Origin: an uncultured Solirubrobacterales bacterium
Lineage (GTDB): Bacteria; Actinomycetota; Thermoleophilia; Solirubrobacterales; 70-9
Direction: 5' to 3'
NCBI GenBank assembly: GCA_963745305.1
Contig: CAVUWL010000001.1
Span: forward strand, 32,278 to 96,277
DNA: 64,000 nucleotides
The notes beneath the pieces are model-generated. The model was given only the letters and a program-made list of their open reading frames with translations, did no database searches and was not told the DNA's origin. Each line of letters starts with the position of its first letter. Position 1 is the first letter of the stretch. Of the stretch, positions 24,116-64,000 are shown in pieces. A program made the position numbers and the translations under genes.

Positions 24116-24169
24116 ACTCCTTGCGACGTAACTCCGTTCGCACGACGCACTCTGAGCAGCGTCGCAACC

Positions 24170-27329: not shown

Positions 27330-27440
27330 TGGGCGCCAAGCTAAAGTTCGCCACTGCCCGTGCCAAGCTCCGGCGCAGCCGGGAGTGGGGGAGGGGTGTG
27401 TCTTCAGTCCCATCCACCGCAGCGGCCCAGTCGCCGATAG

Positions 27441-27545: not shown

Positions 27546-27628
27546 GAGCCCAAGCGAGGGAGCGTCACCAATTGGTTCTTCGTGACCGAGCGAAGATCAC
27601 GCTCTGGGCGCGGAACAGGCGCCGGGCT

Positions 27629-39214: not shown

Positions 39215-39279
39215 GGCGCTCGCCGATCGCTCCTTTGAGCGCGAGGGCCAGATTCGCCAAAGGGATCTGGGATCAGAAA

Positions 39280-43002: not shown

Positions 43003-44286
43003 CTACCGACCTCGACTGCGCCCTCGTCCTCCGCCGTTGGCCACCGCGCAGGACTCCTCGACTCCGAGGAATGGGGCAAGTGTGATGTAGGTAAGAACCG
43101 GGGCGATCTGCGGCAGGCCCTCGGGCCCGGAGTCTCGCACCTGTCGATAGACCAGCTCATATGCCGCCCCGCCGATCGCCTCAGCGGCAATCGGCTCGGT
43201 CTTCGGAGCCCGTTCATAGCCTGGATTCAAGAAAACGAAGAGGGATTCGAGAAGGCTGTCCCGACGCTCCAGCGCCCTCGTCGTTCCGCTCAGGATCTCG
43301 ACCAGGGCGATCCGGGCGAAAGCCGGGTGGGCGGCGAGGAAGTCGAGCATCGCCTCAAAAGAGACCCGCACCGCGGCTGGCCACTCCTTTGCCCGTCGGT
43401 AGGCGGGCAGGGTCACGGCCAGCATCTGCGCCTGACCCGCGTCCAGCGCCGCCACGAAGACGTCCTCCTTATCGTCGAAATGCTCATAAAAGGTGCTGAG
43501 CGAGGCGGAGGCTCGCTCAACGATCTCTGCAATCGTCGTCGCCGCGTAGCCGCGCTCGGCGATTGCCTCGGTCGCCGCCGAGACGATTCGCTCCGCGGGT
43601 TTCTTGGAGCGATATATCCCAGCCTCAGGGTCATGCCCCTGCCTGACCCTCCGTTTCAGCTCTCTGGGGGGTGGTTCATAGCCGAGACTCCACCGCGCCA
43701 GCGGCCCGGCCAGGCTGCTCAGCTCCTCCTCCTTACCGCGCCGCAAACGTGTGTAGATCACCTTGCGCAGCCCCCCGACTATTGCCTGCACCAGCTCCGC
43801 TGGCATCGTTGGCCCAGCCTCTCGCGTGTCGAAGGCCTGCTGGTAAAGGGCCTCAAAGCCGGCTACGGTCTGATCCATCAAGGCCACGGCGTCTGACCCC
43901 GCGCTGAAGGACTCCACAAAGCACATTCGCGCCGCGGCTGGCTGAGCGACGATCTGCTCCATGAAGGCCGCCAGCGCCGATCCCCTCCCGTCATAGCGGG
44001 CCGAGACAGCCCTGGAGGTTCGCCGCAGGATCTCCTCCATCGTCGCCACGAAGCACTCCTGCCTGTCGGCAAACTGCTGATAGAACGCCGTTCTTGAGAC
44101 TCCCGACAGCGCGACTATGTCGGCCACGGTGGTCGCCGCGTAGCCCTGATCGGCCACCGTGGCCACCATTGCGGCAAATAGCCGCTCGCGTTGGCTGCGC
44201 ACCACCTCCTCGCGCGGAACCCCCGGTCCTGGGCGAATCTTGCGGTCGCGCAGCTCCTCTGCGTTGCCCCAGGGAGTGATGACCAT
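43003..44286 (-). CDS. double-domain (tandem-fused) TetR-family regulator, unit 2
   Basis: RERLFAAMVATVADQGYAATTVADIVALSGVSRTAFYQQF and AERIVSAATEAIAERGYAATTIAEIVERASASLSTFYEHF. Collinear with 13626..14984. Confidence 0.85.
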   Translation of the reverse strand: MVITPWGNAEELRDRKIRPGPGVPREEVVRSQRERLFAAMVATVADQGYAATTVADIVALSGVSRTAFYQQFADRQECFVATMEEILRRTSRAVSARYDGRGSALAAFMEQIVAQPAAARMCFVESFSAGSDAVALMDQTVAGFEALYQQAFDTREAGPTMPAELVQAIVGGLRKVIYTRLRRGKEEELSSLAGPLARWSLGYEPPPRELKRRVRQGHDPEAGIYRSKKPAERIVSAATEAIAERGYAATTIAEIVERASASLSTFYEHFDDKEDVFVAALDAGQAQMLAVTLPAYRRAKEWPAAVRVSFEAMLDFLAAHPAFARIALVEILSGTTRALERRDSLLESLFVFLNPGYERAPKTEPIAAEAIGGAAYELVYRQVRDSGPEGLPQIAPVLTYITLAPFLGVEESCAVANGGGRGRSRGR

Positions 44287-44861: not shown

Positions 44862-47297
44862 ATGACCAGGGATCGGAAATCGATCGGTGGAGAGCAGCTG
44901 AGAGACGCCACGCCAGGCGCCAGCTCCGATCGCCCAACCACCTGCATCGTTGAGAGTCAAAGACCGGATGCCGCGGGTCGGCCTCTCCACCGGGGTATCC
45001 ATACCCCGTTCCCTCCCGCTGTCGGCGTGGTCCTCTCTTTCATCTCAGCTCTCGCGGCGCTGATGGCCCTCGCCGCCGCCCCCGCGTTCGCGTCCGGAAC
45101 CGAAACCCTCAAGGTCTCCATCTCAGGGAGCGGTACCGGCACGGTCAGCGGAGCCGGCATCGAATGCGGCAATGGCGCCGAAACCTGCGAAGCACAGTTC
45201 GCCGCCAAATCCGTCATCACACTCACCGCTACCCCAACCGAACGCTCAACCTTCGCTCGTTGGTCCGGCTGCACAGAAGTGCCAAGCCCGACCAAGTGCA
45301 GGGTCAGAATTGCCGCAGGGGTTCCGACTGAAATCGGCGCAGAATTCTCCGCCATCCCCCAGGAGACGCTCGCAGTTGTCAACCCCGGCGCCGGGCTGGG
45401 CGGCGGCCGCGTTGTCGGCACCACTCCCGGACGCGAATTCAGCGAAATCGAATGCGGTAACGAACGCGAAGGCTGCCAGGCCGAATACAACCAGGCAGCC
45501 GTCATCACCCTCACCGCGACCCCAACCGAACGCTCAACCTTCAGCGGCTGGGAAGCCGGCGACTGCAAATCCGAAAGCGGCCCCGGCAACGACGAATGCA
45601 AAGTCGAAATGACCAAAGCCGAGACCGTCAAAGCCGAATTCGTCCCGATCCCCCAGAAGACCCTCTCCGTCGCCGCCCAAGGCGCCGGCCAGGGCACCCT
45701 CACCGCTTCTCCTGGAGGCGAATTCGCCTCGATCGAATGTGGCAACGGCGCCACCGCCTGCGAAGCGCAGTACAACCAGGGCACCACTCTCGTCCTCACC
45801 GCTCGCTCTTCAACCCACAGCAAGTTCGTTGCCTGGACCGGCTGCGAAGCGCAACCCAGCGAAACCGAATGCGAAGTGACGCTGAGCGCCACCAGGGCCA
45901 TCACCGCCGAATTCCTCCCTATCCCCCAGCAGCCTCTCGAACTCTCCGTCACCGGGCCCGGTGAAGTGACCAGCTCCCCGCCGGGCATCGCCTGCACCTC
46001 GACCGGCGAAACCTGCAGCGAACACTTCGACTCCGAAGGCTCCGAAGGCAGGGTCACGCTCTTCGCTTCGCCCCCTGCCGACCACCACGTCGTCTGGAGC
46101 GGCTGCGAAATCTCGAGCGGAACCGAATGCACGGTGACGATGAGCTCCGCCCGATCGGTAACCGCCCAATTTCTCCCCACTCTGCAAACGGTGCTCGTCA
46201 CCCGCATCGGCGCCGGCGAAATCACCAGCTCCCCATCCGGCATAGCCTGCGACGAAGACCTCTGCAGCGCAGACTTTCAGGAAGGAGCCACCGTCGTCCT
46301 CACTGCCCACCCCGCCGCCCACAACCGTCTCGGTGCCTGGGGAGTCGGTGAGTGCAAAGAAGAACCGAGTCCCACCGAATGCGAAATCGAAATCGGCGCC
46401 TCCTTCTCGATCGTCGCGGCCGAATTCGCTCCCATTTCGCACACCTTTGCCGTCGCGGTCAGCGGTGGAGGCTCGGTGAGCGCTAGCGCCGGCCCGATCG
46501 CCGGCTGCGCTCACGGTGGCGGCGTCTGCGCGGGAGAATACGATGAGGGTTCAACGCTTGTTCTTACCGCGTCGCCCTTTTCCAACAGCACCCTTCCCAC
46601 CTGGAGCGGCTGCACACCGAAGCCCAATCCCGCCGAATGTGAGGTCACGATCGGCTCTTCGGGCGAAACGATCCATGCCGATTTTCCGCCCAACTCCCAC
46701 ACCCTCACTGTAGAACCCTTCGGCTCCGGCTCGATTAGTGCCGATAGCGGCACGATCTCCGACTGCTCCGAAGCCGGCGGCACCTGCGCCGGCTCCTATA
46801 TCGAAGCAGCCACCCTCACTCTGATCGCAACTCCCGGCCCCCATCAGGCCGTCGCCTGGCACGGCTGCACCCACACCGAAGAGGACAGTTGTCAGGTTGA
46901 AATCGGCGCCTCTTCCTCCTCCGTCAAAGCCAGCTTCGCACAGATCACCCATGCTCTCACAGTCACGAGGGTCGGCTCGGGGCAGGGTTCGGTCACCTGC
47001 AACGGCGCCACCTGCGCCTCCAGCTACCCCGAAGGTACCACCCTGACCCTGACTGCCTCCCCGGCCGCCGGCTCGGCCTTCGCAGGCTGGAGTGGGGGAG
47101 GGTGCTCGGGAACCGGAGCCTGCCATCTCACCTTCGAAGCCGACACCACTGTCACCGCGACCTTCAACGCCAACACCGCGCCGCCTATCGAAGAAGAAAA
47201 GAAGCCGCCGCCGCTCAAATGTCGCAACGGCTTCGTCAAGAAGAATGGCCGCTGCGTCCGCAAGTCCAAGCCTCGTCATCACAAGAAGAAGCACTAG
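44862..47297 (+). CDS. secreted InlB-B-repeat protein (about eight repeats) with Cys-hairpin basic tail, intact (unit 2)
   Basis: Signal-like VVLSFISALAALMALAAAPAFA (GTG 45027 is an alternative start). Repeats of G.G.V......I.CG.....C.A.Y..G..V.LTA.P...S.F.GW.G..C......ECKV....A..V.A.F. Tail PPLKCRNGFVKKNGRCVRKSKPRHHKKKH. Confidence 0.8.
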   Translation: MTRDRKSIGGEQLRDATPGASSDRPTTCIVESQRPDAAGRPLHRGIHTPFPPAVGVVLSFISALAALMALAAAPAFASGTETLKVSISGSGTGTVSGAGIECGNGAETCEAQFAAKSVITLTATPTERSTFARWSGCTEVPSPTKCRVRIAAGVPTEIGAEFSAIPQETLAVVNPGAGLGGGRVVGTTPGREFSEIECGNEREGCQAEYNQAAVITLTATPTERSTFSGWEAGDCKSESGPGNDECKVEMTKAETVKAEFVPIPQKTLSVAAQGAGQGTLTASPGGEFASIECGNGATACEAQYNQGTTLVLTARSSTHSKFVAWTGCEAQPSETECEVTLSATRAITAEFLPIPQQPLELSVTGPGEVTSSPPGIACTSTGETCSEHFDSEGSEGRVTLFASPPADHHVVWSGCEISSGTECTVTMSSARSVTAQFLPTLQTVLVTRIGAGEITSSPSGIACDEDLCSADFQEGATVVLTAHPAAHNRLGAWGVGECKEEPSPTECEIEIGASFSIVAAEFAPISHTFAVAVSGGGSVSASAGPIAGCAHGGGVCAGEYDEGSTLVLTASPFSNSTLPTWSGCTPKPNPAECEVTIGSSGETIHADFPPNSHTLTVEPFGSGSISADSGTISDCSEAGGTCAGSYIEAATLTLIATPGPHQAVAWHGCTHTEEDSCQVEIGASSSSVKASFAQITHALTVTRVGSGQGSVTCNGATCASSYPEGTTLTLTASPAAGSAFAGWSGGGCSGTGACHLTFEADTTVTATFNANTAPPIEEEKKPPPLKCRNGFVKKNGRCVRKSKPRHHKKKH

Positions 47298-47394
47298 GAG
47301 CCAACCAGTGAGCCTTCGCCGATTCCGCTCTTCCCTCACCCCCAGGAATTGCCCTGCCCCATCCGGCCGCGCGGGGTTGGCGGACCAACTGCCT

Positions 47395-50300
47395 ATGTCC
47401 CGTTCCGGGCGTTTCCTCTGCGCCGCTGCGATCGCGGTGTCTGCGGCGTTCTGGTTGCTCCCCTCGGTTGCCCAGGCCGTTCCGGCACGTAACTTCGACA
47501 CCCAGCTCACCGGCTTGACGCCCCCGACCGCCCCGGTGCAGGGCCCCTTCAGGACTCCCTTCGGCGTCGCGATCGGAGCTGACGACAACCTCTGGGTTGT
47601 CGACGAAGGCCGTGGCGCGATCCCTGAGTTCGACCCCCTCGGTGGCTACCTCTCCCAGGTCCCCGACTCCGCCGGCCGCCGCCTGGCCGTCGATCGTTCC
47701 AGCGGTGATATCTACGCCGTTAGTGGAGCCAACGGTGCAAACGCGATCGGGGTATTCGAAAGCAACGGCACCTTTCTCCGCCACATCGCATTCGGTCGAG
47801 AAGAGTGTGGCGAAATCGCGGTGGCCGTCGACAACTCCGGCGGCGCCGGCGGTCCCGGCGAAGGCGAACAGGGCCGGCTCTACCTCACCTATAACTGCGG
47901 TATCCGCGGCGTCCAAGCCCTCGATCCCGATGGAAACCCCGTCGACTTCTCCGGCTCCGCCGGCTATATCTTCGGTAACGAAATCACCGGTACGCCCGCC
48001 GGCGAATTCGAAAGCGCCAACAACGCACTCGCTACCGATGCCCACGGCGACGTATACCTCTTCGGCCGCGCCGGGAGCGAAGAACCCGCCGGCTATGAGT
48101 TTGCACCCAGCGGCACTTTCATTCGGGCCTTCACGGGTGCCGAAGTTCCTGGTGGCCTTTCCCGCGACATCGAAGGTATCGCCGTCGATCCCACCAACGG
48201 GAATGTCCTTTTTGCAGCAGCAGATTACGCCGAAAGCGCCATCTATGAATTCAACGAAACCGGAAAATTCCTCCAAAAGATCAGCGGCACCTCCGAAGGC
48301 AATACCTTCGCTGGTCTCAGTGGCGGCATCGCCGTCAGCTCGACCGGCTACCTCTACGCAGCCGACGCCGCCGCAGGGGTCATCGACGTCTTCCTTCCAC
48401 CAGGCCTCGGCCCCTTGCCCGAAGCTAGGACCGAAGCCGCCACCGAAATCGAACGCAATTCTGCGACCCTCCATGCCAAAGCCAGTTTGGCCGGCGGCAG
48501 CCATATCACGAAATGCCAGTTCGAATACGCCATTGCCGCCGCCTACAGGCCCTCGGCGGAACCCGAACCCTATACCGATACCGCACCCTGCCTTAACAAT
48601 GCGGGCGAAACAGTCGGTACCGGCGCAGCGCCGATCGAAGGCGCCACCGAACTACACGCACCCATCCAAGGAATCCACGCTGGCGACACCTTCCACTTTC
48701 GCATCTCACTCACCAATGATGATGATGTCGCCCGCTACGGCTCCGACCGTACCTTCGAAACACCTCCCGCCGTCACCGCTGTCAAGACCCTTCCTCCGAC
48801 CGAGATCACCAACAAGTCCGCACTCCTGCACGGCTCCTTTACCGGCGAAGGTATCCCCACCACCTACCACTTCGAATACACAACGGAAGGCGATTTCGAA
48901 GACCACGGCTACGGAACCTCGATCAAGCTGCCCGTCCCCGATGCCGGCGCTCCGGAAGGGGCTGGTGAAGTTTTCGTCCCCCCGGTTGAAGCCGCCGGTG
49001 TCGTCCCCGACACCCCCTACGTCTACCGGCTTGTCGCCACCAACAAATATGGGACGACCATCGGCGAAAATCAGTCCTTTACCACCTTCCAGCCACCTAG
49101 CATCGAAGGATTCTTCACCTCCCACCTCAGCGCCACCTCCGCCGACCTTGAAGCCAAGATCAACCCCCAGGGCTTTGCCACTGAATGTCGCTTCGAATAC
49201 GGCCCCACGACTTCCTATGGAGCCATTGCGCCTTGCCCAGAAGCGCTAGGGAGGACACAGCGGCCTGCCGATCGTGGTCCCAATCTCCGGCCTCCAGTCG
49301 GGCGTCACCTACCACTTCCGCGTCATCGTCGAAAACAAATGGGGAGCCGTCACCTCCGAAGATCAGAGCTTCGAATTCTTCCCCCCGGCTTGCCCCAATC
49401 CGCCATCCGCAACCAGACCGGCTCCGCATACCTACCCGACTGCCGCGCCTATGAGCTCGTCTCCCCGCCGAACGCCAACGGCACTCTGCTCTACGCCGGT
49501 GGGCCAAACACGGGGAACGCCACAAACCCATCCCGCCTCTCCTTCACCGGGCTCTACGGCTCCATTCCTGGCGCCAAGACCATCAACTCCGCCGGTGACC
49601 TCTACGTCGCTACCCGCACCGACACCGGTTGGGAATCCAAATATATCGGCCTCCCCGGCAGTCAGGCCGGCTGCATGGGTGGGCCACCCAACTATCCGCT
49701 CTCCCACGTCGTCTCCCCGAACCCGCCGTATCTCACCAACTCGGTCCCTCGGATTCCTCCATGAAAGGTTCCTCATCTGGAACGACGGTACTCCCGGTAG
49801 CATGCTTCAACGGGACTTCGCCCTTCGCCGATACCAACTGGGAACTGGACTCGCCGTCCAATGCTCCCTACATGTACAGCGCCGAAGGCGGCCTGATCCA
49901 GCGCCTGCCGACCGACTTGCCGGGGGGAACGGGAGCGGTGGAAGCCAGCACTCAAGTGCCCCTATCCACACAGGAGACCGTGACGCCGCCCTGCACCAGC
50001 GAAGTCGCGGCCTCCGGTGATCTCAGCCACCTGGTCTTCTCTTCCAACACCACCTCCTTCTCCGAACCAGGACAGCCGCCTGGCCTTACCAAAGCCCCCG
50101 GCTCCGCTTATGACAACGACATTGCTTCCGGCACGGTCGAGTTGATCTCGCTGGGGCCCAATGGCGAAAACATTCCCCAGGACCCCGTCTTCGCCAATGC
50201 TCCTCCCCAACCCAACAACGGAAGCAGAATCGAAGTGCCCGGCGGCGCCGAAGAGTTCCTCCGCTTCCCGGCCATCTCCACCGACGGTTCCCACATCCTC

Positions 50301-51693
50301 ATTTCGACCGCGACCGCCGGCACCAGCATTTGCAACAACGGGGGTGAAATCAGATTCGGGCTCTGTCCTCGATTTACAGCCACGCCCCGTCCATCTCTAC
50401 ATGCGCGTTAAGGATCTCATCACCTACGAAATCGCCGAAGGCCACACAAACCCGTCGCCATTCATCGGCATGACTCCCGATGGCTCAAAGGTGTTCTTTA
50501 GCTCCGAAGAACACCTGACCACTGAAGACCCCGGGCATGTCGGCGCCTCCCTCTACATGTGGTCTCAGAAGGGCGAAGAAGAACACCATCCACTTACGCT
50601 GATCTCAAAGGGCGAAAGCGAAGAATCCGGCGCATCCGGGAACACCGGCGAATGCCACCCGGCACGCCGTAGTGGGGCGCCCTGGACCACCAACTGCAGC
50701 GCCGTGCCGATCTCGACTTACCTTTACTCCTTCCTTACGGGTGGGGCTGGCGGCAACGGCTTTTCGGACTCCGCGATCTCCGCCGACGGTGATATCTACT
50801 TCTACTCTCCAGAGCAGCTCGAAGGCACCGAGGGTGTTCCTGGGCAGGAGAACCTCTACGACTACCGCGACGGCAAGGCACGCTATGTGACCACGCTCAA
50901 GCCCGAAGAAAAGTGCACCAAAACCGCAGTCCTCGGCGTTGACACGGTCTGCACCACCGAAGCGGTGCTGCGCATCGACGTCAGTCCCGACGACAGCCAT
51001 ATGGCCTTCGTCACCGCCTCTCGGTTGAGCTCCTATGACAACGCCGGCCATCTTGAGATGTACTCCTACACCCCTGCCTCGGGGGCGCTCGTTTGCGATT
51101 CCTGTAACCCCGACGGCCAGCCCGCGACCGCCGATGTCCAGGCCAGCCAGGACGGGCTGTTCATGACTGACGATGGCCGCGCATTTTTCTCCACAACCGA
51201 ATCGCTGGTACCCCAGGACACAAACGAAGGCCCTGATGTCTATGAGTTCGTCGACGGCCGCCCGCAGCTGATCTCTCCCGGCACTGGGACGGCCACTGCT
51301 GGAAGCGCCGTCTTTAGCTTCGCCGCCTCAAACGAGTTGCCTGGCCTGGTTGGCGTCAGCGCCGACGGCACCGACGTCTACTTCGGCACCTTCGACAGCC
51401 TCGTCTCCGGCGATCACAACGGAAACTTCTTTCGCTTCTACGACGCCCGCACCGATGGCGGTTTTCGTCAGGCCGCGCCGGTCCAACCCTGTGCCGCTGC
51501 AGAAGAATGCCACGGTCCCGGCAGAGAAGAACCCGGACTTCCGACCCAAGGCACAGGATCCGCCCTGACCGGAGGTAACGCCACCTTGCGAAGCCACCTA
51601 AGGCACCGCACCAAGAGGCACAAGCGCGTGCGCCATGAACGCAGCAAGAAGCACCGAGCCAAGCAACACCGGAAAGGATCGGTGCGCCCTTGA
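47395..51693 (+). pseudogene. giant secreted beta-propeller protein 1 (unit 2), at least four frameshifts; interrupted by group II intron
   Basis: MSRSGRFLCAAAIAVSAAFWLLPSVAQA. NHL-like blades (DNLWVVDEGRGAIPEF, GDIYAVSG, GDVYLFGRAG). FN3-like modules (CQFEYAIAAAY, TFHFRISLTND, YHFEYTTEGDF, PYVYRLVATNKYG, CRFEYGPTTSYG, VTYHFRVIVENKWG). ACPNP-AIRNQTGSAYLPDCRAYELVSP. PD40-like blades (STDGSHILIST, TPDGSKVFFSSEEHL, SADGTDVYFGTFD). AAEECHGPG. Path: frame of ORF 47092.. to about 49250, ORF 49274.. to about 49400, back to about 49760, ORF 49629.. to about 50370, then ORF 50161... Exon 1 ends at 51627. Confidence 0.8.
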
Positions 51694-53708: not shown

Positions 53709-56663
53709 ATGATCTCGCCTCTTCGCCTCTTCGCCGCAGCGGTCTCAGGATTCCAGCCGACTGAGGATCTCGAGGCGCGTGGCTCCGCGCGCCGGCTGAG
53801 CATCGCCGTGTGCGTGACCGCGGTGGTGGTGGGCTTGCTGGTGCCCGCAGTTGCCCAAGCGGTACCGATCTTTCGCTTTACCACCCTGCCCTCCACCACA
53901 CAGGCGGGCGGTCATCCCGACGTCGCCTTTTCATATGCGGTCGGCAACCGTGCGCAGAATCCCAGTCCTTGCGGCTGTGATGACCCTAAGAACATCTCCG
54001 TTCACCTCCCCACTGGTCTGATCGGCAATCCCCATGCCACCCCGCAGTGCACCATCGCCGCATTTGCCTCAGAAGAATGCCCTACCGACTCTCAGGTCGG
54101 GATCACCCAGGTCCACGTAAGCACCGGCACCTGCATCGAACTGGAAGAATGTACGATCAGCTTTCTGACCCCCGTCTTCGCCCTTGTCGCTCCTCCCGAA
54201 GACGCGGGCCTCCTCGGTTTTAAAACCGGCATTTTCGCCAGTCCGATACTCACAGTCATAAGCTCCCGTACCGACAGCGACTACGGTATCAACGCGACGG
54301 TCGAAAATACCCCACATTTCTTCCCGCTGTTCAGCTTCAAAGAGGATATCTGGGGTATTCCCTCCGAACATAGCCACGACGACCTCAGATTTGGCTTCCG
54401 TCAGTTGCCGACAATCGGAGGGACGGAAATCTGTACGACCGGCGGTGAACCGAGTACCTTCGACCCCAACACGATGGCCACCTGGTGTCCGTTCCGCGGA
54501 GAACACAAAGCGGTTGGCACAAACACCGAATTCGGTGGACCCGGAGGTCCCGTTTCCTCCGACAGCCCCCACGTCCCTTTCTGGCAAAACCCAACCACCT
54601 GCGGTGAATCTTCGCTCGTTGCCTCGCTCGACGTCCTCAGCTACACAGAAGAATTTACCCAGGCGGACTCCTCCTACCCTGCGACCACCGACTGCGATCA
54701 GCTCACCTTTAACCCCAGCCAATCGGTGGTCCCCACGACATCGGCTGCAGATTCACCCTCCGGCGCCGAACTGCATCTCAGCGTTCCCCAGTTCGAGAGC
54801 CCCAGCGTACCGTCACCCTCCGAGCTCCGCGACGCCACCATCACCTTTCCCGAAGGCTTCTCCCTCGCGCCTAACGTGGCCAACGGCAAGACCACTTGTT
54901 CCGAAGCGCAGGCGCGTTTTGGCACGACCGAAGAAGCCCAATGCCCCGAAGACGCGAAGGTCGGTACGATCTCCATTGATACCCCCGTCCTGCCCGGCCC
55001 CCTCCTCGGCGCCGTCTACCTTGGTGAACCGCAACCGGGCAACCGCTTCCGACTATTCCTTGTCCTCGACGGCTTCGGACTCCACATCAAGCTGTCTGGC
55101 AAGGTCATCCCCGACCCGGTCACGGGGCAGATTCGAATCGCCTTCCAGAACCTCCCTCAAACCCCCTTTGAATCCTTCAACGTGCACATTTTCGGCTCCG
55201 AGCGGGGCGCCCTCGACACGCCGAGCCAGTGCGGCTCCTATGAAGTAAGCAGCGTCTTCACTCCGTGGGACGCCGCTCTGCCAGAACAGACCTCCCGCCA
55301 GTTCTTCAAAGTGACCGAAGGGCCAAACGGCAGCTCCTGCCCAGACGGCGCGCGCCCCTTCAGCCCCGGCTTGAAGTCTGCCTCTTCCGCCAACACCGCC
55401 GCCGCCCATACCTCATTCTCGATTGATCTGACCAGAAACGACGGCGAACAGAATCTGAAGGCGCTGAACGTCACCACACCACCGGGCTTCTCTGCGACCC
55501 TTAAGGGCGTTTCTTATTGCCCGGACGCCGCGATCGCAGCCGCCGCCCTGGAAAGCCATACAGGTCTCGCTGAGGAAGCCAGCCCCAGCTGTCCTGCATC
55601 GAGTTTGATCGGCGAATCGAGCGCCGGAACCGGAGCCGGCGATCACCCGCTTTTCCTCCCCGGCAGGGTCTACCTTGCCGGTCCTTACAAGGGTGCGCCG
55701 CTAAGCCTCGCGATCATTACTCCGGCAGTCTCCGGAGGCTATGACCTCGGCAACGTCGTGGTCCGCGCTGCGCTTCATGTCAATCCCGAAACCGCCCAGA
55801 TCACCGCCATCTCTGACCCCCTGCCCCAGATCTTCCAGGGTATCCCCCTCCGCCTGCGCGCGATTCTCGTCAACCTCAACCGTCCGGGTTTCGCCTTAAA
55901 CCCGACCGATTGCAACCCCCTCGCCGTGACCGCTCAGGTCTTCGGCACAGAAGGCGCCGTTTCCACCCCCTCCGAGCACTTCCAGGTCGCCAACTGTGTC
56001 TCCCTCTCCTTTGCCCCCAGGCTTGCGATGGGATTCTCGGGCTCCACCAAACGCGCCGGCAACCCGTCTCTTCGCACCGAACTCACCTATCCAAGCAGCG
56101 GCCCCTACGCCAACGTCTCTCGCGTCGCCGTCACCCTGCCGCCAACCGAGATTGTCGACAACGCCCACATCAAGGACCCTTGCACCAAGGACCAGTTCTT
56201 CGAAGGCAAGGTCCCCGGCGAAAAGTGCCCCCCAGGTTCCGACATCGGCTTCGCAAAGGCAAGCACGCCCCTCCTTGAAAAGCCCCTCGAAGGCCCGGTC
56301 TACCTGCGGACCGGAGGCGGCCACAAGCTCCCCGACATCGTCGCCGCCTTAAACGGTCAGATAGACATCGCCCTCGACGGCCACGTGGACGCCGTTCACT
56401 CTGGCATTCGTACCACCTTCGAAACAGTCCCCGACGCCCCCGTTTCCCACTTCACATTGAGCCTCGACGGCGGACGTAAGGGTCTCCTCCAAAACGACAC
56501 GAACCTCTGCACCAACACCCTTCGCGCGGTCGCTGACATCGCCGCCCAAAACGGCAAGGCGGCTAATCAGAACCCCGTTCTCAGCACTCCTTGCGCCAAG
56601 AAACACCAAAAGCGCGCCAGGCTTGGACGAGCTTTGGGCGTCAACCGGGCAGGTGGGCGTTGA
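53709..56663 (+). CDS. QAGGHPD-motif secreted protein, type A (unit 2), intact
   Basis: Signal-like LSIAVCVTAVVVGLLVPAVAQA. FRFTTLPSTTQAGGHPDVAF (53901..53921). LIGNPHATPQCTIAAFASEECPTDSQVG. WQNPTTCGESSL. FPEGFSLAPNVANGKTTCSEAQARFG. VYLGEPQPGNRFRLFLVLDGFGLHIKLSGKVIPDPVTGQIRIAFQNLPQTPFESFNVHIFGSERGALDTP. GIPLRLRAILVNLNRPGFALNPTDC. Tail TPCAKKHQKRARLGRALGVNRAGGR. Start ATG 53709 is the first in-frame ATG before the hydrophobic segment. Confidence 0.8.
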   Translation: MISPLRLFAAAVSGFQPTEDLEARGSARRLSIAVCVTAVVVGLLVPAVAQAVPIFRFTTLPSTTQAGGHPDVAFSYAVGNRAQNPSPCGCDDPKNISVHLPTGLIGNPHATPQCTIAAFASEECPTDSQVGITQVHVSTGTCIELEECTISFLTPVFALVAPPEDAGLLGFKTGIFASPILTVISSRTDSDYGINATVENTPHFFPLFSFKEDIWGIPSEHSHDDLRFGFRQLPTIGGTEICTTGGEPSTFDPNTMATWCPFRGEHKAVGTNTEFGGPGGPVSSDSPHVPFWQNPTTCGESSLVASLDVLSYTEEFTQADSSYPATTDCDQLTFNPSQSVVPTTSAADSPSGAELHLSVPQFESPSVPSPSELRDATITFPEGFSLAPNVANGKTTCSEAQARFGTTEEAQCPEDAKVGTISIDTPVLPGPLLGAVYLGEPQPGNRFRLFLVLDGFGLHIKLSGKVIPDPVTGQIRIAFQNLPQTPFESFNVHIFGSERGALDTPSQCGSYEVSSVFTPWDAALPEQTSRQFFKVTEGPNGSSCPDGARPFSPGLKSASSANTAAAHTSFSIDLTRNDGEQNLKALNVTTPPGFSATLKGVSYCPDAAIAAAALESHTGLAEEASPSCPASSLIGESSAGTGAGDHPLFLPGRVYLAGPYKGAPLSLAIITPAVSGGYDLGNVVVRAALHVNPETAQITAISDPLPQIFQGIPLRLRAILVNLNRPGFALNPTDCNPLAVTAQVFGTEGAVSTPSEHFQVANCVSLSFAPRLAMGFSGSTKRAGNPSLRTELTYPSSGPYANVSRVAVTLPPTEIVDNAHIKDPCTKDQFFEGKVPGEKCPPGSDIGFAKASTPLLEKPLEGPVYLRTGGGHKLPDIVAALNGQIDIALDGHVDAVHSGIRTTFETVPDAPVSHFTLSLDGGRKGLLQNDTNLCTNTLRAVADIAAQNGKAANQNPVLSTPCAKKHQKRARLGRALGVNRAGGR

Positions 56664-59600
56664 TGAAGACCAAGCCCAATCTGCTTCGCTTTTTCCGCGA
56701 TTCAGTGTGTATTCAGCTTGCCGTCACTTCTGTCGTTGCGATCGCGGCACTCCTTTTTACCGCCGCCCCCGCTCTCGCCGACCGCAGCTACGACACCCAG
56801 ATCACCGAACTTCCGGACGCCTTTGGCATTACGGTGGATTACTCCGACAGCCTTTGGGTCGCCAACTCCGGCAACAACGGTCAAATCTCTGAGTATGGGC
56901 CCTTCTCCTCAAACCTCGTCGCCACCCAGAACGGCAGCGGCGCCGGTGAACAATTCAGCGCCTACTACAACCGAAGTGTGGCGCTCGACGATCTGAACGG
57001 TTACCTCTACGTCGCAAACTCTGACACAGATAAGCTGGATGTCTTCGAAAATGGCACCGGGCCCCTTATCGAACAATGGGGTGGCTTCGGCGGTGGGTTC
57101 GTCTACGCGGCCATCGACAACTCAGGGGGGACCGCAAACGGTACAGTGTATGTGGCAGCCTCCGGCCCAAAGAATATCCAGGCCTTTGACGCAAATCATA
57201 GCCAGGCCAATTTCTCGGCCCTCGACGAGCCATATATTGCCGGTAACCGAATCACCGGAACGCCCAATGGCACCTTCGGCTTCATTCGAAACATCGCTGT
57301 TGATTCCAACGGCAACATTTATCTTGTTGACCAGGAAAAGAGTGAAGTCGACGAGTTCAAGCCAAGTGGCGAATACGTTCGCTCCTTCAAGAAGGCGGAA
57401 CTCACCACCCCGACCGCTGTTGCGGTCGACCCGACCAACGCCAACGTCCTCATAGCGGAAGAAGGCGGTGGGGTCATTGACGAATTCACTTCCTCCGGTG
57501 AATTCCTCGCCCAGATCAATGGATCGGAAACCCCCGCCGGATCGTTCTCGCCCGCCGGCATCTCCTTCAACTCCGAAGGCTACCTGTATGTCTCCGATTC
57601 CGCGCACGAAGCGGTAGACCTCTTCACTCCGAACGTCCCACTACCCAAGATCAGCTATGAACCACCATCGAACCTCAAGCAGACCTCCGTCACTCTGAAC
57701 GCAAAGGTCGATCCCAACGGCGGTGAAGTCACCGGCTGTTACTTTGAATACGGGGTCACCGCCGCCTACGGCTCGCCCCATGTCCCCTGTTCGCCAGAAC
57801 CTCCCTACTCGGGAACCGCAGAAACCAACGTCAGCGCCGAAATCTCGGGGCTCACTTCTGAGACCGCGTATCACTACCGGGTCGTGGTCACAGCTGCGAG
57901 CGGCCATCCAAGAAGGGGTGGCGATCAGACATTCACGCTGCACGCCGTGGCGAACCTCGCGACCGAACCGGCGACGGCGCTTACTCCCACCGGCGCCACG
58001 CTCAACGCCTCCTTCCTCGGCAACGGCGAGGACACCCACTACTACTTCGAATGGGGGACCACCACCTCCTACGGAAACCAGACGACAATTCCACCGGGAG
58101 AAGATGCCGGCTCCCCCTCGGGCCCGACCCCCACCGGACTCTCATTTCACCTCACAGGCCTGGAACCGGCAACCACCTATCACTACCGGGTGGTCGCTGA
58201 AAACGGCGCCGGCACGACCACGGCCGGCGATCGGACCTGACGACTCCGGCGGCGCCGCCCCTGGTCAGCGGCGAGCAGGTGGGCAATGTGCATGCCGATA
58301 CCGCCCAGGTACACGCTGAGATCAATCCGGGCGGGGGAGAAACCACCTACCACGTCGCCTATGGCACCACCAGCAGCTACGGATCGCTCGGCCCGATCCC
58401 CGATGCAAAAGCGGGATCCGGGAGAACTCTGCAGAGCGTCACCGTCCAGCTGAGCGCCCTCACGCCCGGCACCACCTACCACTACCAGGTGGTCGCTCAG
58501 AACGCCACCGAAACCACCAAGGCGACGCGACCGTACCTTCACGACCCTGCCTTTCACCAAGGAAATCACCGACACCTGCCCCAACTCCCACGTCCGCCAG
58601 CAGACCGGCGCCGCCCAACTCCTCGACTGTCGCGCCTACGAGCTGGTCTCCGCGGCCAATACCGCCGGCTATGACGTCGAGTCCAATCTCGTCCCCGGCC
58701 AGGCCCCCTTCGCCGGCTATCCCGCAAGCCTCCGGCCGGGTCCTCTACGGCGTCCACGACGGTGCCATCCCCGGCGTCGGCTATCCGACCAACCGCGGCG
58801 TCGACCCCTATCCTCGCCACCCGCGGCGCAAGACGGCTGGAGCACCGAATACGTCGGCATCCCCTCCAACGCAACCCCCTCCTCCGCTCCCTTTGCCTCG
58901 ACCCTGCTCGAAGCCGACGCCGGCCTCGACACCTTCGCCTTCGGCGGCCCGGAAATCTGCTCGCCCTGCTTCGCCGACGGCTCCACCGGCGTCCCGCTCC
59001 GCCTCCCGGCGGCGAGCTGATCCAGGGCATGGCCGGCTCGCTCGACCCCGGTCCTGCCGCCGAACCGGCCGGCTACGTCGCCAAGCCGCTCTCCGCCGAT
59101 GGCACCCATCTCGTCTTCGGCTCGACGTCCAAGTTCGCAGCGGGAGGGAACTCCAAGGCCAGATCTCGATCTATGACCGCGATCTGAGGACGAACGAAAC
59201 CCACGTCGTCTCCGACGATTCCGCCGGCAGCCCGATCGCCTGCCTCAACAACTGCTCATCCGACGGAATCGCCGAGCTCGACATCTCCAAGGGACGGCTC
59301 CCACATCCTCCTCGGCCAGCTCGTCGAAGAAGCCGGAGGTGCCAAGTACTGGCACCTCTACATGAATGTCGATGACTCGGTCCAGACGGTCGAACTCACC
59401 CCCGGCACCGCCGCAGGCGTCCTCTTCGACGGCATGACCGCCGATGGCTCCAAGGTCTTCTTCTCCTCCGAAGAACACCTGACCCAGGAAGATGAACAGC
59501 ACAGCGGCGCTGACATTTACATGTGGGAAGAAGGGCCACCCGCTCACCCTGATCTCCCAGGGACCGAAGGCAACGCAAGCTCATGCGATCCCGCCGCCAA

Positions 59601-61765
59601 CACCGCACACGTTCACTGGAACACGGCCGAAAAAGAAGAAGAGAACTGCGGCGCCGTCGCCGTCGGCGGAGGCGGGGGCGTAGCCTCAGCCAACGGCACC
59701 ATCTCCTTCCTTTCCCCCGAGCCTCCTCGACGGCTCCCAGAACGCAGACGGCGTCAAGAACGCCCCCAACCTCTACATTGTCCGTCCCGGCACTGGCGCC
59801 CCATTCGTCGCCACCCTCGAATCGTCCCTGAACACCTCGCTCCCGCCAAAAACGATCCACCCGTTCGTCGGTTCCTTCGGCTCGTTCGAAAAGCCCACCG
59901 CCGTCGCGATCGCCGAAGGCCCCGGTGAAGAAGGTGACACCTACGTCCTCGACACCGGCCGAACATTCGGACCGGGTTTGGCGAGGAAGTTCGACCCCGC
60001 TGGTGACCCGATCACTGCATTCGGCAAGAACGGCAAACTTGCCGGGCAGAGCGCCAAAGGCAGCGGCGACCTACAGAGCGGCTCGACCACGATCGAATCG
60101 GTGACGACGACCGGCGGCGCCTTCAGCGTCGGCCAGGGAATCACCGGCGCCGGCATCCCCTCGGGGGCGACGATCACAGCCCTCGGCGCCGGCTCGCTTG
60201 AAATCTCTCAACCAGCGACTGCGTCGGGACTCACATCGCTAACCGGCGGGCTCAACTTTGAAGAGTACGGCTATGCCGGCATGCCGGGCGGAATCGCGGT
60301 CGACAACGATCCTTCCAGCCCCTCCTACCGCGACCTCTACGTCCCCGACCTCATTCACGACGTCATCGACAAGTTCGGGCCTTCGGGCGAATTCATCTCC
60401 CAGATCAAATCTTCCCCAATGCATTTCCCACTGGTGCGACGGTTGATCAGGCCAACGGGGACGTCTACGTCTCCGAGTATTCCCACCGAGCGGTCCAGGT
60501 CTTTGGGCCCACGGAGAAGCGATCAAAGCGCGGAAACGAATTGGAACATAGCCCCACCGGGGTCGGCGTAGCCTCGGACGGCGGCGTCTACGTCGTCGAC
60601 GGCGACGGGATTACGCCAGAAGGAACCGAAGTCTACGAACCTTCCAGCCACTCGCCGCTCGAATACAAAAGCACAGGCAAACTGTTTGACGCGAACCCAT
60701 CCTTCGGCGTCGCCGTCGCGCCCGACGGAAGCGTTTACGTCGACGAAGGCACCCAGGTCAGCCAGTTCGATCCCGCCGGTCAGCGGCTCGGCACTCCCCT
60801 CGGCGTCGGGCTACCTGAAGGAACATCCCGTACTCACGGGTGGCACGGCCTCAATTGGGCTTGGCGCGAGCTCAAATAGCCTGGTCATCTCCAACCCCGG
60901 CTCCGGCCCCGGCGAAAACGGGGACGCTATCGCCTTCCGCTCCCTCTATCCGCCCTCCCCGCAGACCGACAACCCGCTCGTCGTCGATTCGGTCACTGCG
61001 CCCGAAACTCGCCAAACGGCCGACTTCCAGATCACCCCCTCGGGCAATGACGCCGCTTTCACCTCGACCCTCGCCCTGGCGGGCCATGAAGAAGAAACCG
61101 CCGGCAACACCGAGGTCTACCGCTACGACGCCCCGACCGAAAGGCTCGACTGCGTCTCGTGCACCCCCACCGGCGCTCCCTCGGCGCGGCGAAGCCGGCC
61201 TAGCCTCCGAATGGCTTGAGCCTCACCGACGAAGGCCGCGTCTTCTTCACCACCACCGACCAGCTCACCGCGGCCGACACCGACAAAAAACAGGACGTCT
61301 ATGAGTGGGAGCCCCTGGGCGCCGGGAACTGCGAAGAATCCAGCCTGAGCTTCACAAGGCCAGCGAACGCATGCCTCGCGCTGATCTCCGCCGGCACCAG
61401 CGCCTTTGACTCCGGCCTGCTCGGCGTCGATGCAAACGGTAAGGATGCCTACTTCTTCACCCGCGACAGCCTCGTCCCCCAAGACAAGAACGGCCCTACG
61501 GTGAAGATCTATGACGCCCGCGAAGGCGGGGGCTTTCCCTTCGAACCACCCCCGGCCCCATGCAGGGCCTCCGATGAGTGCCACGGCGCTTCAAGCCCCG
61601 CTCCCCCGCCGCTCGAGGTCGGCAGCGAATCAGGCACTCCCATAACCATGGAAACGAACCGAAGGCCTGCAAGAAGGGTTACGTCAAAAAGCACGGTAGC
61701 TGCGTCCGTAGAGCACGCAAAGGCACCACAGGCGAGCCAACCCCCACCGTGGAGGTCACAAGTGA
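56663..61765 (+). pseudogene. giant secreted beta-propeller protein 2 (unit 2), many frameshifts
   Basis: ATG 56663 overlaps the preceding stop (TGATG). MKTKPNLLRFFRDSVCIQLAVTSVVAIAALLFTAAPALA. NHL blades (DSLWVANSGNNGQISEY, GYLYVANSDTDKLDVF, GNIYLVDQEKSEVDEF, GYLYVSDSAHEAVDLF). FN3-like modules (CYFEYGVTAAYG, TAYHYRVVVTA, YYFEWGTTTSYG, TTYHYRVVAENGAG, TTYHYQVVAQNA). TCPNSHVRQQTGAAQLLDCRAYELVSAANTAGYDVES. CRASDECHG. ACKKGYVKKHGSCV. Tail RHHRRANPHRGGHK ends at TGA 61763..61765. The first 1.6 kb is one ORF (56591..58240); afterwards coding blocks are scattered over all frames. Confidence 0.75.
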
Positions 61766-61881
61766 GCGCCACCACGGGAATGCGGTGGTTGAGGTATTCT
61801 GCTGCCCCGCCGGAGGCTTTCGGTTCAAGCGTGGCAAGGACGCCACACCGCGCAAGGTCCGGAGTTGCAGCAAGTTGCTGA

Positions 61882-64000
61882 TTGCCAGTATTCTTCATCC
61901 TGGCGATCAACACTGCGCCATCCGGAGCAGCGGAGCCAATCACCTCCTTCAAGACCACCCTGATCGAAGCGAATGCCTTCGGCGAATCCGGCAAGGTCTT
62001 TTCAGGGGTGATCAAGAGTGCTCCCAGCCACCAGAGCTTCACGATTGAAACGCCCAGCGGGTCGATCGACACGGTCGTCGCTTTCCCAACCACGAAAATC
62101 AGCGGCCACGGTTTCTCGGAACTCTCACTAAGCAGCCTGCAAAGCGGGGAATCGGTCGTGGTTTTGGGATCCCTCTCAGGCGCCGGTGCGATCATAAACG
62201 CCGCACGGATCTTCGTCGAACCGAAACCGGGAGAATTGACGGTTCCGAGCCTCGAATTCGTCACGGAAGGCGTCGTCCAGGCCGCACCCAGCGGGGAAAG
62301 CTTCACGATCGAAACTGGCGGCGGATCGATCGACACGGTCGACGTCTCTACCTCGACCACATATAGCAGGGCAGGCCGGTGCCAGGCATCCCGCAGCCGA
62401 GCTTGGGCGATGTCAGAAACGCCGATTTCGTGGGGATCTCCGGAACCATCTCAGGCACGACTGTGACAGCGACTCACGTTGTTATCGCTACCCCTCAAGC
62501 CGGCGGTCACCCCGACCTTAAAACCTCCTTCGCGCTCAAAGACCCCGGCGCGCCCGAAGCGGCTAGGAACATCATCTTCAACGCGCCCACCGGAGTCTTC
62601 GGCAACCCCCGCGCGATCACCCAGTGCCTCCTCGCCAGCTTTGCCCTCAATGAATGCCCACCCAACTCCCAGGCCGGCCTGATCACGATCCATGCCAACT
62701 ACGCGGGCAACCCCGATTACCTCCTCGGCACCGCCCCGATCTTCTCCATCGCTCCCGAAGAAGGAGAAACCGCGCGCTTCTCTTTCATCGTCCCCGTTCT
62801 GGACATCCCGATCACAATCCCCGTGACGGTCCGCACCGCCACCGACTACGGCCTGCGTTTCACCGTCTCCGACATCGCCGAGCTCGCCCCTCTCGCAGAA
62901 GCCAAGCTGACCTTCTGGGGCTTCCCGGCCGACGACAAGCCATGATGCCGAACGCTTCCCGATCGGCACCCCCGGCAACCCGACCGGCTGTGCCCACGAA
63001 GTTGGCACCGGCTGCATCGCCGAACCGACTTCGGACAGCATCGTGCCCCAGCCCCTACTGGACAACCCGACGGTCTGCACGGGCAATGAACCCACCAGCC
63101 TGCTCGAAGTGCAAACCTACGGGGACCCCACGCACCCCTCCGAAGATAGTGCCACCTACCCCCCGATCGAAGGCTGCGAGAGAGAGGTCTTCAAACCGGT
63201 CCTCCAGGCCTCTCCCACCACCACCCAGACCGACTCCGCCTCGGGCCTCAACGTCGACCTCAAAACTCCGCAGTTCCTCACCTTCGCAGCCGAGCCCTCA
63301 GAGATCAAAGCTGCCGACGTCACCCTGCCCGAAGGGTTTCACGATCAACCCGGACGCCGCCGACGGGCAGACCGCCTGCAGCGAGGCCCAAGCCAACTTC
63401 GAATCCGAAGGCCCCGCCGAATGTCCCGATCAGTCCAAGATCGGCACCTTCTCGATCGGCACCCCTGCTCTGCCTGAACGTCTCGAAGGCTCCGTCTACC
63501 TCGGCGAACCGAAACCCGGCGACCAGTACCGCCTATTCATGATCGCCTCGGGGTTCGGTATGAACATCAAGCTCGATCGGCTCGGTCAGACCCAACCCGG
63601 TGACCGGCCAGCTCACCGCCGAATTCCCAAACCTGCCCCAGGCACCCTTCGAAGACTTCCAGCTGCACCTCTTTTCCGGCGAACGGGCGCTGATGGCAAC
63701 CCCGACGTCGTGCACGATCTACACAGTGAACGGCGAGTTCTACCCTTGGAACGCGACTCAGCCCGAACAGAGTTCAAGCCAGATCTTCGGCCTCGAATCA
63801 GGTCCCCACGGCAGCGAATGCCCCGGCCCAGATCCGTCCCTTCAAACCAAGTTTGGAAGCCGGCACCACCAACGCCACCGCCAACGCCTTTAGCTCCTTC
63901 AGCCTCAAGCTAAGCCGCGAAGACGGAGATCAGAATCTCGGCCACATCAATTTCACCATGCCTCCCGGCCTGACCGCCAACCTGCACGGGATTACTTACT
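61882..64000 (+). pseudogene. QAGGHPD-motif secreted protein, type B (unit 2), frameshifted, runs off the window
   Basis: AEPITSFKTTLIEA plus DUF5666-like repeats (GVIKSAPSHQSFTIETPSGSIDTVVAF; GVVQAAPSGESFTIETGGGSIDTVDV). PQAGGHPDLKTSF (62496..62516). VFGNPRAITQC. NECPPNSQAGLITIHANYAGNPDYLLGTAPIF. Premature TGA at 62943. Later blocks lie in ORFs 63043.., 62654.., 63600.. (LPEGF, GEPKPGDQYRLFMIASGFGMNIKL, FPNLPQAPFEDFQLHLFSGERALMATP). An in-frame TGA directly precedes 61882 inside the signal-peptide-like region. Confidence 0.75.

Follow-up and report, generated by a model that had tools for sequence, protein, structure and literature searches.

A very large family of secreted proteins with a repeated, predicted beta-sandwich module, encoded one-to-one with propeller giants in soil Actinomycetota

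We describe a protein family, here called Q, from a 64,000-nucleotide stretch of DNA (the window; contig CAVUWL010000001.1) of an uncultured Solirubrobacterales bacterium. The family is very large and previously undescribed; its members are secreted, rod-like proteins of soil Actinomycetota. As judged from profile comparisons, a typical Q protein consists of four homologous modules, predicted to be beta-sandwiches, in the order odd-even-odd-even. There are two types, QA (type A) and QB (type B), and each Q gene follows the gene of a giant propeller protein, here called N. The reading we favour, with confidence that is roughly even, is that Q would be a conserved, disulfide-stapled stalk paired with a variable propeller protein in a surface complex resembling a fibrillar adhesin. 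Coordinates of all features are given in Table 1.

The window (G+C ∼65%) has exactly four copies of the family, as found by tblastn with the protein QA2: 24499-27326, 36565-39063, 53709-56660 and 62487 to beyond the window end at 64000. When the query is a type-B protein, the matches to the two B copies become longer, covering 36028-39162 and 61927 to >64000. The first-pass annotation of this DNA had listed four paralogs at these places and only one of them as intact, which holds: QA2 keeps a single phase, with zero switches, on a track of G+C content at third codon positions (GC3), and the other three copies change frame four to six times each. QA1 shares 73.6% DNA identity with QA2, and QB2 shares 79.3% with QB1, whose in-frame pieces are 72-97% identical to the intact type-B protein of a related locus (L001). 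QA2 itself is a 100% match to a public protein (P0001, 1008 amino acids), for which the gene call starts at the ATG at 53637. The longest open reading frame (ORF) over QA2 begins with a TTG at 53469; we set this start aside because that stretch falls within a group II intron that ends at about 53585.

Q is not recognised by curated databases. For the whole of QA2 no Pfam-A family was found at E ≤ 0.1, and for its four modules none at E ≤ 10; NCBIfam gave only a 14-bit RnfB noise match, PADLOC and PHROGs gave no match to Q, and PDB sequences gave none by phmmer or by profile search. A defence-system or phage origin of Q was rejected, as PADLOC and PHROGs had no match (in the same scans N and s1, a small protein encoded in many of the same gene clusters, give only weak matches of an immunoglobulin (Ig)-like or tail-fibre-like kind). 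The earlier description of the family as uncharacterised therefore stands: a confident full-length match to a characterised family was looked for in Pfam, NCBIfam, PADLOC, PHROGs and PDB and none was found, nor was a specific fold neighbour. An exhaustive HMMER profile search of 1.84 billion cluster representatives (clusters at 50% identity) found 9,777 clusters with E ≤ 1e-3, of which 7,185 have E ≤ 1e-10 and 3,732 have E ≤ 1e-30. A word-indexed search with QA2 gave 952 matches (the best 120 exceed 1,000 bits; nearly all of these are 'hypothetical protein' entries from Solirubrobacterales metagenome-assembled genomes, MAGs), and at least 576 loci turned up among GTDB species representatives, the 80 top-scoring ones being all from Solirubrobacterales or Thermoleophilia. 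All named relatives are from Solirubrobacterales, Thermoleophilia or Actinomycetota MAGs, and they come from independent sources (NCBI, ENA, JGI and Logan).

The modules were defined by hhalign profile-profile comparison of sub-alignments. Modules 2 and 4 are matched with a probability of 97.7% (E-value 1.9e-12), modules 2 and 3 with 94.3% across 185 columns, modules 1 and 2 with 86.8%, and modules 1 and 3 with 62%. Each module (∼200-280 amino acids) has the same layout: an F-x-P start, the loop of the first hairpin, 'LPxGFxxNP....C ... CPxxSxvG', 'GxVYLxxP' and an 'NPTxC' end, with two conserved Cys pairs per module. Across the family the repeat unit is an odd/even super-repeat of two modules (∼430 amino acids). 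Conservation rises behind the first module: mean pairwise identity is 44% for module 1 (39% for its insert) vs 59-66% for modules 2 to 4. In type-B proteins the first strand is separated from the motif described below by an insert of 100-170 amino acids, which holds a single repeat or two. The label 'DUF5666-like' that the first-pass annotation gave this insert is rejected, as Pfam detects no DUF5666 in a full type-B protein at E ≤ 0.05 or in three isolated inserts at E ≤ 10; the sole weak Pfam match of the insert is the OB-fold family Rep_fac-A_3 (E-value 0.005).

Conservation was read from an alignment of QA2 with 38 homologs (39 sequences, 52-75% identity), in which all the motif blocks listed in the first-pass annotation are kept. 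Residues invariant in 39 out of 39 sequences include A66, G67, H69, P70, P108, P112, C114, P295, C298, P381, G383, G393, K394 and C397 in the N-terminal half; Y437, G439, R446, R448, L482, P483, P486, H493, F495, G496, E498 and G500 in the middle; and G711, L714, R715, R717, R725, F728, P732 and C735 in module 3. The motif that had drawn attention to the family, QAGGHPD, aligns with NTAGAHT in module 3 (where H567 is invariant), SPSGAE in module 2 and KRAGNPA in module 4; because it lines up with loops of modules 2 to 4, it is the module-1 version of a recurrent structural element. It had been described as an invariant motif tied to the signal peptide, 15-20 residues after the cleavage site. 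We found that it starts 13 residues after the predicted AQA site, and that it is instead the first-hairpin signature of a repeated module, which fusion proteins keep internally, far from any signal peptide. Its core, A-G-x-H-P, is family-wide: it is present in 87 out of 94 representatives of diverse 50%-identity clusters with a recognisable module 1, so the conservation is not only a matter of recent paralogy. The trailing Asp is not; the core is followed by Y, F or D, with Tyr/Phe commoner across the family and Asp specific to a subfamily. The leading Gln, Q65, is found in 34 of the 39 sequences. The motifs are still conserved at 30-45% identity.

The same modules build much larger proteins. 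Relatives of 3,420-7,161 amino acids (P0121, P0122 and P0128) are built almost wholly from Q modules of odd and even type in alternation, with 8-19 matched stretches, and modules are repeated up to ∼16 times in such giants. For example, P0122 (7,161 amino acids) has a signal anchor, a module-1-like module, many alternating module-2-like and module-3-like modules, a module 4 and, last, a Lys-rich stretch. The odd modules of P0122 open with '(T)QAG(G/A)(H/N)P(D/N)LxLxVxRxDxxQxL'; among its ten matched odd modules the His is kept in five, replaced by Asn in four and otherwise changed in one, and P0121 has no His at this place. A word-indexed search with the super-repeat of a giant gave nine matches, all from Actinomycetota or without a name, and the named giants are labelled 'Actinobacteria/Actinomycetota bacterium'. 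One cluster of giant relatives (P0124) carries the JGI label 'Cu/Ag efflux protein CusF', probably a misannotation.

Other relatives are fusions in which an NHL head is N-terminal to the Q body. P0146 (1,425 amino acids), for example, joins an NHL propeller in frame to two fn3-like domains, a complete Q body and a polybasic tail, with the motif (FTQAGGHPYEL) ∼570 residues from the N-terminus. Among the best 150 representatives, 82 are 1,041-2,000 amino acids long, mostly with the Q body at the C-terminal end. The N-terminal extensions of 36 long relatives contain Pur_ac_phosph_N/fn3, Ig_2, NHL, SGL or a phytase-like propeller, or nothing known.

Structure prediction agrees with an all-beta, modular protein. 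The AlphaFold2 model of QA2, built from the 39-sequence alignment, is all-beta, with a mean predicted local distance difference test score (pLDDT) of 79.6 and a predicted template-modelling score (pTM) of 0.66, and it puts the motif in the loop between strands 54-61 and 72-78. Module 3 modelled alone (pLDDT 80, pTM 0.81) has ∼13 strands, and two short helices within the C604-C628 loop. When the whole chain is compared with PDB folds by Foldseek, chains of Ig-like domains come on top: PrgB is first (8beg_B, E-value 3.5e-10), integrin alpha legs rank second to eighth (7nxd_A, E-value 3.7e-08; 8t2v_A; 3fcs), and Sgo0707 and ClfA/SdrD (4igb, 10pa, 2vr3; E-values 1e-4 to 1e-3) are also found; further matches are a mastigoneme, factor XIII barrels and alpha-2-macroglobulin. 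The best matches among viral models (BFVD) are a DUF11 protein (E-value 1e-09) and Big-1 chains. The single module 3 has no significant neighbour among PDB folds (best E-value 0.017, template-modelling (TM) score 0.34). Structure prediction followed by Foldseek, the check that the first-pass annotation had proposed, thus gave no specific fold neighbour.

Q proteins are predicted to be secreted and disulfide-stabilised, as had been suggested from the sequence of the window. We predicted the cleavage site from the AxA pattern and compared the N-termini of the 39 homologs; they have Sec-type signal peptides, and the predicted mature N-terminus reads phi-P-I-x-x-F-x-A-x-P-S-T-T-Q-A-G-G-H-P-D. The mature QA2 has 22 Cys, of which 18 are invariant in the alignment, and the Cys count is even in 96% of QA homologs. 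The putative disulfide map pairs Cys 114-124, 298-329, 397-412, 508-544, 604-628, 735-763, 825-840 and 934-962. At the other end, the QA2 tail has nine K/R/H among the last 25 residues, and the tails of N1, QA, N2 and QB homologs have a median of 10-15.5 K/R/H in the last 25 residues vs about two expected. Such tails, 20-30 residues long, are shared by the large secreted proteins of these gene clusters, including an 811-residue protein (in the window at 33640-33736, 47200-47297 and 56598-56660, and in loci L002-L016); in N proteins the tail is often preceded by a mini-motif, C-x(2,3)-G-(F/Y)-V-K-K-x-G-x-C-V, and the 811-residue protein likewise ends in CxxGFVKKxGxCV and a basic tail. The small proteins s1 and s2 have no polybasic tail, as judged by comparing C-termini. 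In 135 Q and N proteins we found neither a hydrophobic segment at the C-terminus nor a credible LPxTG signal (three of them have chance LPxTG-like strings). The polybasic tail may be a new retention or adhesion tag.

The genomic context of Q is strict. We read the gene order in 82 related loci (in each, the match to the query was the first Q, type A) and found N-Q-N-Q on one strand in all 82, as in the window, confirming that one copy follows each propeller giant. In many of these cassettes, s1 (∼205 amino acids, membrane-anchored) and s2 (∼262 amino acids, secreted) follow the second Q (type B). Statistics were taken from 24 cassettes with four intact long ORFs. In 18 of them the stop of N1 and the start of QA overlap by 4 nucleotides, and overlaps of 4-8 nucleotides are the commonest at the QA/N2 and N2/QB junctions. 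The two partners differ in variability: Q lengths have a standard deviation of 33-46 amino acids vs 243-281 for N (range 799-2,177), and the median global identity between cassettes is 50% for QA and 56% for QB vs 33% for N1 and 37% for N2. QA and QB show 41% identity both within a cassette and between cassettes; the A/B split is therefore older than the multiplication of cassettes. At least six cassettes, ∼3% of the genome, were counted in one complete chromosome of 2.87 Mb (OY970304.1). Together with the in-frame NHL-Q fusions, the conserved order and the 4-nucleotide overlaps back the one-to-one partnership that had been proposed.

We argue from translational coupling and natural fusions that N and Q act together physically. 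The stalk-like reading is taken because the giant relatives multiply their modules, alternating odd and even types, and that of a constant stalk with a variable partner because Q is less variable than N in length and identity. Under this model, N1, QA, N2 and QB (with s1 and s2 where present) would be made stoichiometrically from one operon. Q would be exported by Sec and, after cleavage of the signal peptide, would fold to a rod of four modules with two disulfides per module, probably at the cell surface, where the polybasic tail would hold the base of the rod on an anionic envelope polymer or membrane. Module 1, with the A-G-x-H-P hairpin loop, would be the distal end and would meet the variable propeller 'head'. 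This head, either a giant NHL protein (N) of its own that is co-translated with Q or a domain fused to the N-terminus of Q, would bind the ligands. Multiplied into several individually regulated copies per genome, the cassettes would provide a repertoire of binding specificities on a constant stalk.

Several points weigh against this. The Foldseek TM-scores are low (at most 0.27 for the whole chain and 0.34 for one module), so the likeness of folds is generic only. Pfam finds no known adhesive domain in Q, and neither Pfam nor the scan of C-termini finds a recognised cell-wall anchor (LPxTG, SLH and similar); retention by the tail is what we infer in its place. Since N proteins come with signal peptides and tails themselves, they may be displayed without Q. 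A stalk of four fixed modules (∼950 amino acids) is short by the standard of classical fibrillar adhesins. Finally, we found no literature on Solirubrobacterales NHL proteins, Thermoleophilia S-layers or Conexibacter NHL surface proteins.

A fibrillar adhesin is defined as a tandem-repeat stalk with an adhesive domain and an anchor (bioRxiv 10.1101/2020.12.07.414375; PMC8286594). Measured against the definition of Monzon et al., Q has the stalk, i.e. tandem, mutually homologous domains; it has no known adhesive domain (NHL, SGL, Ig and fn3 are found in the partner N and in N-terminal fusions); and no LPxTG/sortase, SLH, LysM or choline-binding anchor was found in the 135 Q and N proteins or by Pfam. 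Like the fibrillar adhesins of Gram-positive bacteria (PrgB, Sgo0707 and SdrD/ClfA, the best Foldseek neighbours), Q is a secreted protein of tandem homologous beta-sandwich modules, with a variable N-terminal part, a putative C-terminal anchor and modules that are multiplied in its giant relatives. Unlike them, it has no LPxTG, hydrophobic segment, sortase signal or Pfam stalk or adhesive domain; its modules are larger (with ∼13 strands and a disulfide-closed helical loop); it relies on disulfides, as opposed to the isopeptide bonds known for some fibrillar-adhesin domains; its 'head' is usually a separate, co-encoded giant protein; and TM-scores do not exceed 0.27. Because the known anchors and the known stalk and adhesive domains were tested for and not found, we do not file Q in any named adhesin family. 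By analogy, Q may work like a fibrillar adhesin and represent a new family of stalk modules.

Other known systems are further away. For the microbial surface components recognizing adhesive matrix molecules (MSCRAMMs), neither the N2-N3 pair of DEv-IgG domains nor the sortase signal is found in Q, and the Foldseek scores are low (TMq 0.10-0.12 and TMt 0.24-0.27; a single module vs Bbp, E-value 0.035 and TM-score 0.32-0.35). Pfam likewise finds none of the cross-linked adhesin domains in Q (CnaA/CnaB isopeptide, Thr-Gln ester or thioester (TED) domains). Integrin alpha also has a propeller head on Ig-like legs, as do the fused members of the Q family. The Q system differs in that its propeller is NHL and not FG-GAP, it has no transmembrane helix and no beta-subunit partner, and there is no sequence similarity; only the leg-like chain of Ig domains is similar, and the likeness is at most an analogy of architecture. 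Giant adhesins with BIg, DUF11 or Big-1 domains (SiiE, LapA-like) and the Ig-like decoration proteins of phages are also long arrays of beta-sandwich repeats; unlike the SiiE and LapA-like adhesins, Q has a ∼430-residue odd/even super-repeat, no type I secretion or RTX signal and no Pfam repeat model. As for the tail, mycobacterial HBHA is an actinobacterial surface protein with a Lys-rich C-terminal domain that binds anionic glycans. HBHA is small and coiled-coil and has no signal peptide, unlike the large, secreted, beta-rich proteins here, whose polybasic tail comes after a conserved Cys; the comparison is a functional one only.

It is unlikely, in our estimate, that Q instead self-assembles into an envelope layer or sheath (an S-layer or fibre), with N merely a co-expressed cargo or decoration. 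An all-beta, disulfide-rich, secreted, multi-domain protein with weak Foldseek matches to the S-layer protein EA1, BslA and pilins could form such a layer, its tail could, like S-layer anchors, attach to wall polymers, and the genomic investment in cassettes is high. S-layers, however, are usually encoded by a single strongly expressed gene or a small number of them and not by at least six diverged, separately regulated cassettes per genome; there are no SLH or CWB2 domains in Q by Pfam; the giant tandem-module relatives look like fibres and not like lattice subunits; and the strict 1:1 synteny and the propeller-head fusions point to a heteromeric, head-bearing structure.

We also consider it quite unlikely that Q is a binder of ligands or metals, or an enzyme, in which the His of A-G-x-H-P would form a site with other invariant His, Asp and Ser residues, for metal capture or for an autocatalytic Thr/Ser-Gln ester or isopeptide cross-link as in Gram-positive adhesins. 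H69 is invariant and is flanked by T63/T64, Q65 and D71, with S128, Q129 and D191 invariant in the same module, and A-G-x-H-P is nearly constant among diverse relatives; a single module has weak fold matches to the copper-binding, Ig-like proteins YcnI, CopC and CrdA, and there is the JGI label 'CusF'. These fold matches have E-values of at least 0.017 and TM-scores of at most 0.35, and no enzyme family is matched. Q65 is not invariant, most of the family has Tyr or Phe in place of D71, and in the internal odd modules of giants the His is often Asn, Ser or Ala, which suits a structural turn better. A role of the His as catalytic residue or metal ligand is weakened by these replacements of the His, but it may still apply to module 1.

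That Q is a dedicated extracellular assembly factor for N (a chaperone or usher-like platform for folding, disulfides or placement) and no permanent subunit seems to us very unlikely. Strict pairing and translational coupling would fit such a factor, as would the far higher conservation of Q than of N, expected for machinery that serves variable clients; but fusion proteins keep Q permanently on the head, no client is obvious for the giant tandem-module relatives, Q and N share one kind of retention tail, and Q has no similarity to known chaperones or ushers. Lastly, an artefact of recent paralogy or mis-assembly, as might be suspected from three frame-disrupted Q copies out of four, disruption of most N genes in the window and the many related loci from Nanopore-only MAGs, is refuted by the size of the family (3,732 clusters even at E ≤ 1e-30), by motifs kept at 30-45% identity, by members from independent sources and by QA genes in a single frame in 78 out of 79 loci of other genomes.

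Table 1. Positions of the Q genes, their parts and the accompanying features in the 64,000-nucleotide window
Feature	Position	Strand	Description
QA2	53709..56663	+	984 amino acids, type A; sole intact family copy in the window, unbroken from ATG to stop
N-terminal region of QA2	53709..53861	+	residues 1-51; Sec-type signal peptide with basic n-region, hydrophobic core and AQA site
Module 1	53868..54707	+	residues 54-333; least conserved, variable insert at 216-333
QAGGHPD motif	53901..53921	+	residues 65-71; loop joining strands 1 and 2 of module 1
Module 2	54708..55358	+	residues 334-550; 'even' type; 64% mean identity
Module 3	55359..56009	+	residues 551-767; 'odd' type
Module 4	56010..56597	+	residues 768-963; 'even' type
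Polybasic C-terminal tail	56598..56660	+	after the last conserved Cys; PCAKKHQKRARLGRALGVNRAGGR
QA1	24499..27329	+	type-A paralog, frame disrupted; tblastn pieces in frames 1/2/3, ORF fragments, GC3 switches
QB1	35935..39214	+	type-B paralog, two-repeat insert ahead of the motif; frame disrupted
QB2	61882..64000	+	type-B paralog, frame disrupted; runs off the window end
N1a	16634..24198	+	giant with NHL and InlB B-repeats; frame disrupted, 7 phase switches
N2a	27329..33736	+	intact 2135-residue NHL/fn3-like/PD40-like giant; signal peptide and polybasic tail
811-residue protein	44862..47297	+	intact, secreted; five Flg_new_2 (InlB B-repeat) domains; first gene of cassette 2
N1b	47092..51693	+	propeller giant of cassette 2; frame disrupted
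N2b	56591..61881	+	NHL/fn3-like giant after QA2; frame disrupted
s1	39211..39849	+	∼205-residue membrane-anchored protein after QB; 3' end frame-shifted here
s2	39999..40859	+	∼262-residue secreted, Cys-containing protein after s1
Double-TetR regulator	13626..14984	-	divergent, upstream of cassette 1
Double-TetR regulator	43003..44286	-	divergent, upstream of cassette 2
Group II intron 1	33737-35628	+	RF01999 at 33757-33877; RF00029 at 35552-35626; reverse transcriptase/maturase ORF 34287-35564
Group II intron 2	51694-53585	+	RF01999 at 51714-51834; RF00029 at 53509-53583; reverse transcriptase/maturase ORF 52229-53521

The two cassettes of the window are colinear paralogs (72-79% DNA identity), and most of their large genes are disrupted. 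On the GC3-phase track, which is independent of homology, six out of nine large cassette genes switch phase 2-7 times each (27 switches in total, over ∼25.5 kb); essentially no switches are seen in N2a (6.4 kb), the 811-residue protein gene, QA2 and the housekeeping genes (there is one apparent switch in 3956..5269). Gene by gene, the disruption is all-or-none, and intact genes are interleaved with broken ones. The in-frame pieces of the broken genes are 72-97% identical to intact proteins elsewhere, with almost no in-frame stops, and the cleanest junctions (37487, 37581 and 62937) are insertions of one nucleotide outside homopolymers. Many of the related MAGs are Nanopore-only assemblies (PMC12313526). 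Homopolymer sequencing errors as a sufficient cause were rejected, since homopolymer density does not track the broken genes and the clean junctions are outside homopolymers. The disrupted copies are either young pseudogenes or consensus artefacts of a strain mixture.

Each cassette also has a group II intron. Both introns are complete (92% identical at the reverse-transcriptase level), and each starts within 20 nucleotides after the stop codon of an N gene and is followed by a Q gene, all in one orientation. An upstream exon of ∼67 nucleotides encoding the tail '..VRHERSKKHRAKHHRKGSVHS' is nearly identical at both sites, and the whole 1.96-kb block is 90% identical, compared with 72-79% for the genes around it. 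Two Q homologs from other assemblies (P0002 and P0016) end in the same tail peptide. This suggests that the intron homes to the 3' ends of cassette genes, where the tails are encoded, or carries these ends with it by co-conversion.

A more far-reaching possibility, which we regard as improbable, is that the products of N1-QA-N2-QB cassettes form a heteromeric surface organelle that is specific to Actinomycetota and has so far escaped notice. In such an organelle the A-G-x-H-P tip loop would dock the propeller protein, possibly as a site of autocatalytic covalent linkage; all subunits would be retained by a new, sortase-independent mechanism based on polybasic tails; and the cassette copies disrupted by indels, otherwise well conserved, would be silent donors for recombinational surface variation, with mobile, tail-targeting group II introns helping to shuffle them.

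Before each cassette of the window is a divergent gene for a double-TetR protein (∼430 amino acids with two TetR_N domains; the two are 44% identical). Among the 82 loci, a full-length homolog is found at this position in 26 and any TetR-like match in 46. As each window cassette has its own TetR-type regulator before it, the arrangement of genes suggests cassette-specific, and hence separate, regulation. Behind the second Q, s1 has an N-terminal membrane anchor and weak PHROG tail-fibre matches (E-value about 1e-3), and s2 has a paralog at 42006-42830 (+; 29% identical); neither s1 nor s2 has a Pfam or NCBIfam match. The possibility that s2 is a single Q-like module was rejected (hhalign probability at most 9% with one sequence and at most 2% with a 35-sequence s2 alignment).

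Some other observations concern the surroundings of the cassettes. Upstream of cassette 1 there are non-coding repeat blocks: 15447-15606 resembles 16254-16413 (90%), 15611-15747 resembles 16106-16236 (79%) and 15861-16022 resembles 16440-16601 (77%). Two tandem paralogous genes, 8925-10925 and 10929-12941 (-), encode proteins of 666 and 670 amino acids, with ∼70% DNA identity in their 3' parts (10355-10916 and 12371-12932). In locus L001, a 334-residue protein encoded directly upstream of N1 (4374-5378) has a collagen triple-helix repeat match (Pfam E-value 6.9e-05, below the cut-off).

Solirubrobacterales are abundant but poorly studied soil bacteria, and some of them give ∼3% of a ∼2.9-Mb genome to cassettes of which both partners are unannotated. 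The size of the Q family (9,777 clusters, with at least two module types) justifies new domain models, and annotating it would clear thousands of 'hypothetical proteins' from soil metagenomes. The reading of Q as a stalk offers a testable model of how monoderm Actinomycetota may display large binding proteins without sortase signals, by means of a polybasic tail and a disulfide-stapled stalk. It would also be a natural system in which the stalk is constant and the propeller heads vary, of interest for how soil bacteria adhere, aggregate or capture nutrients.

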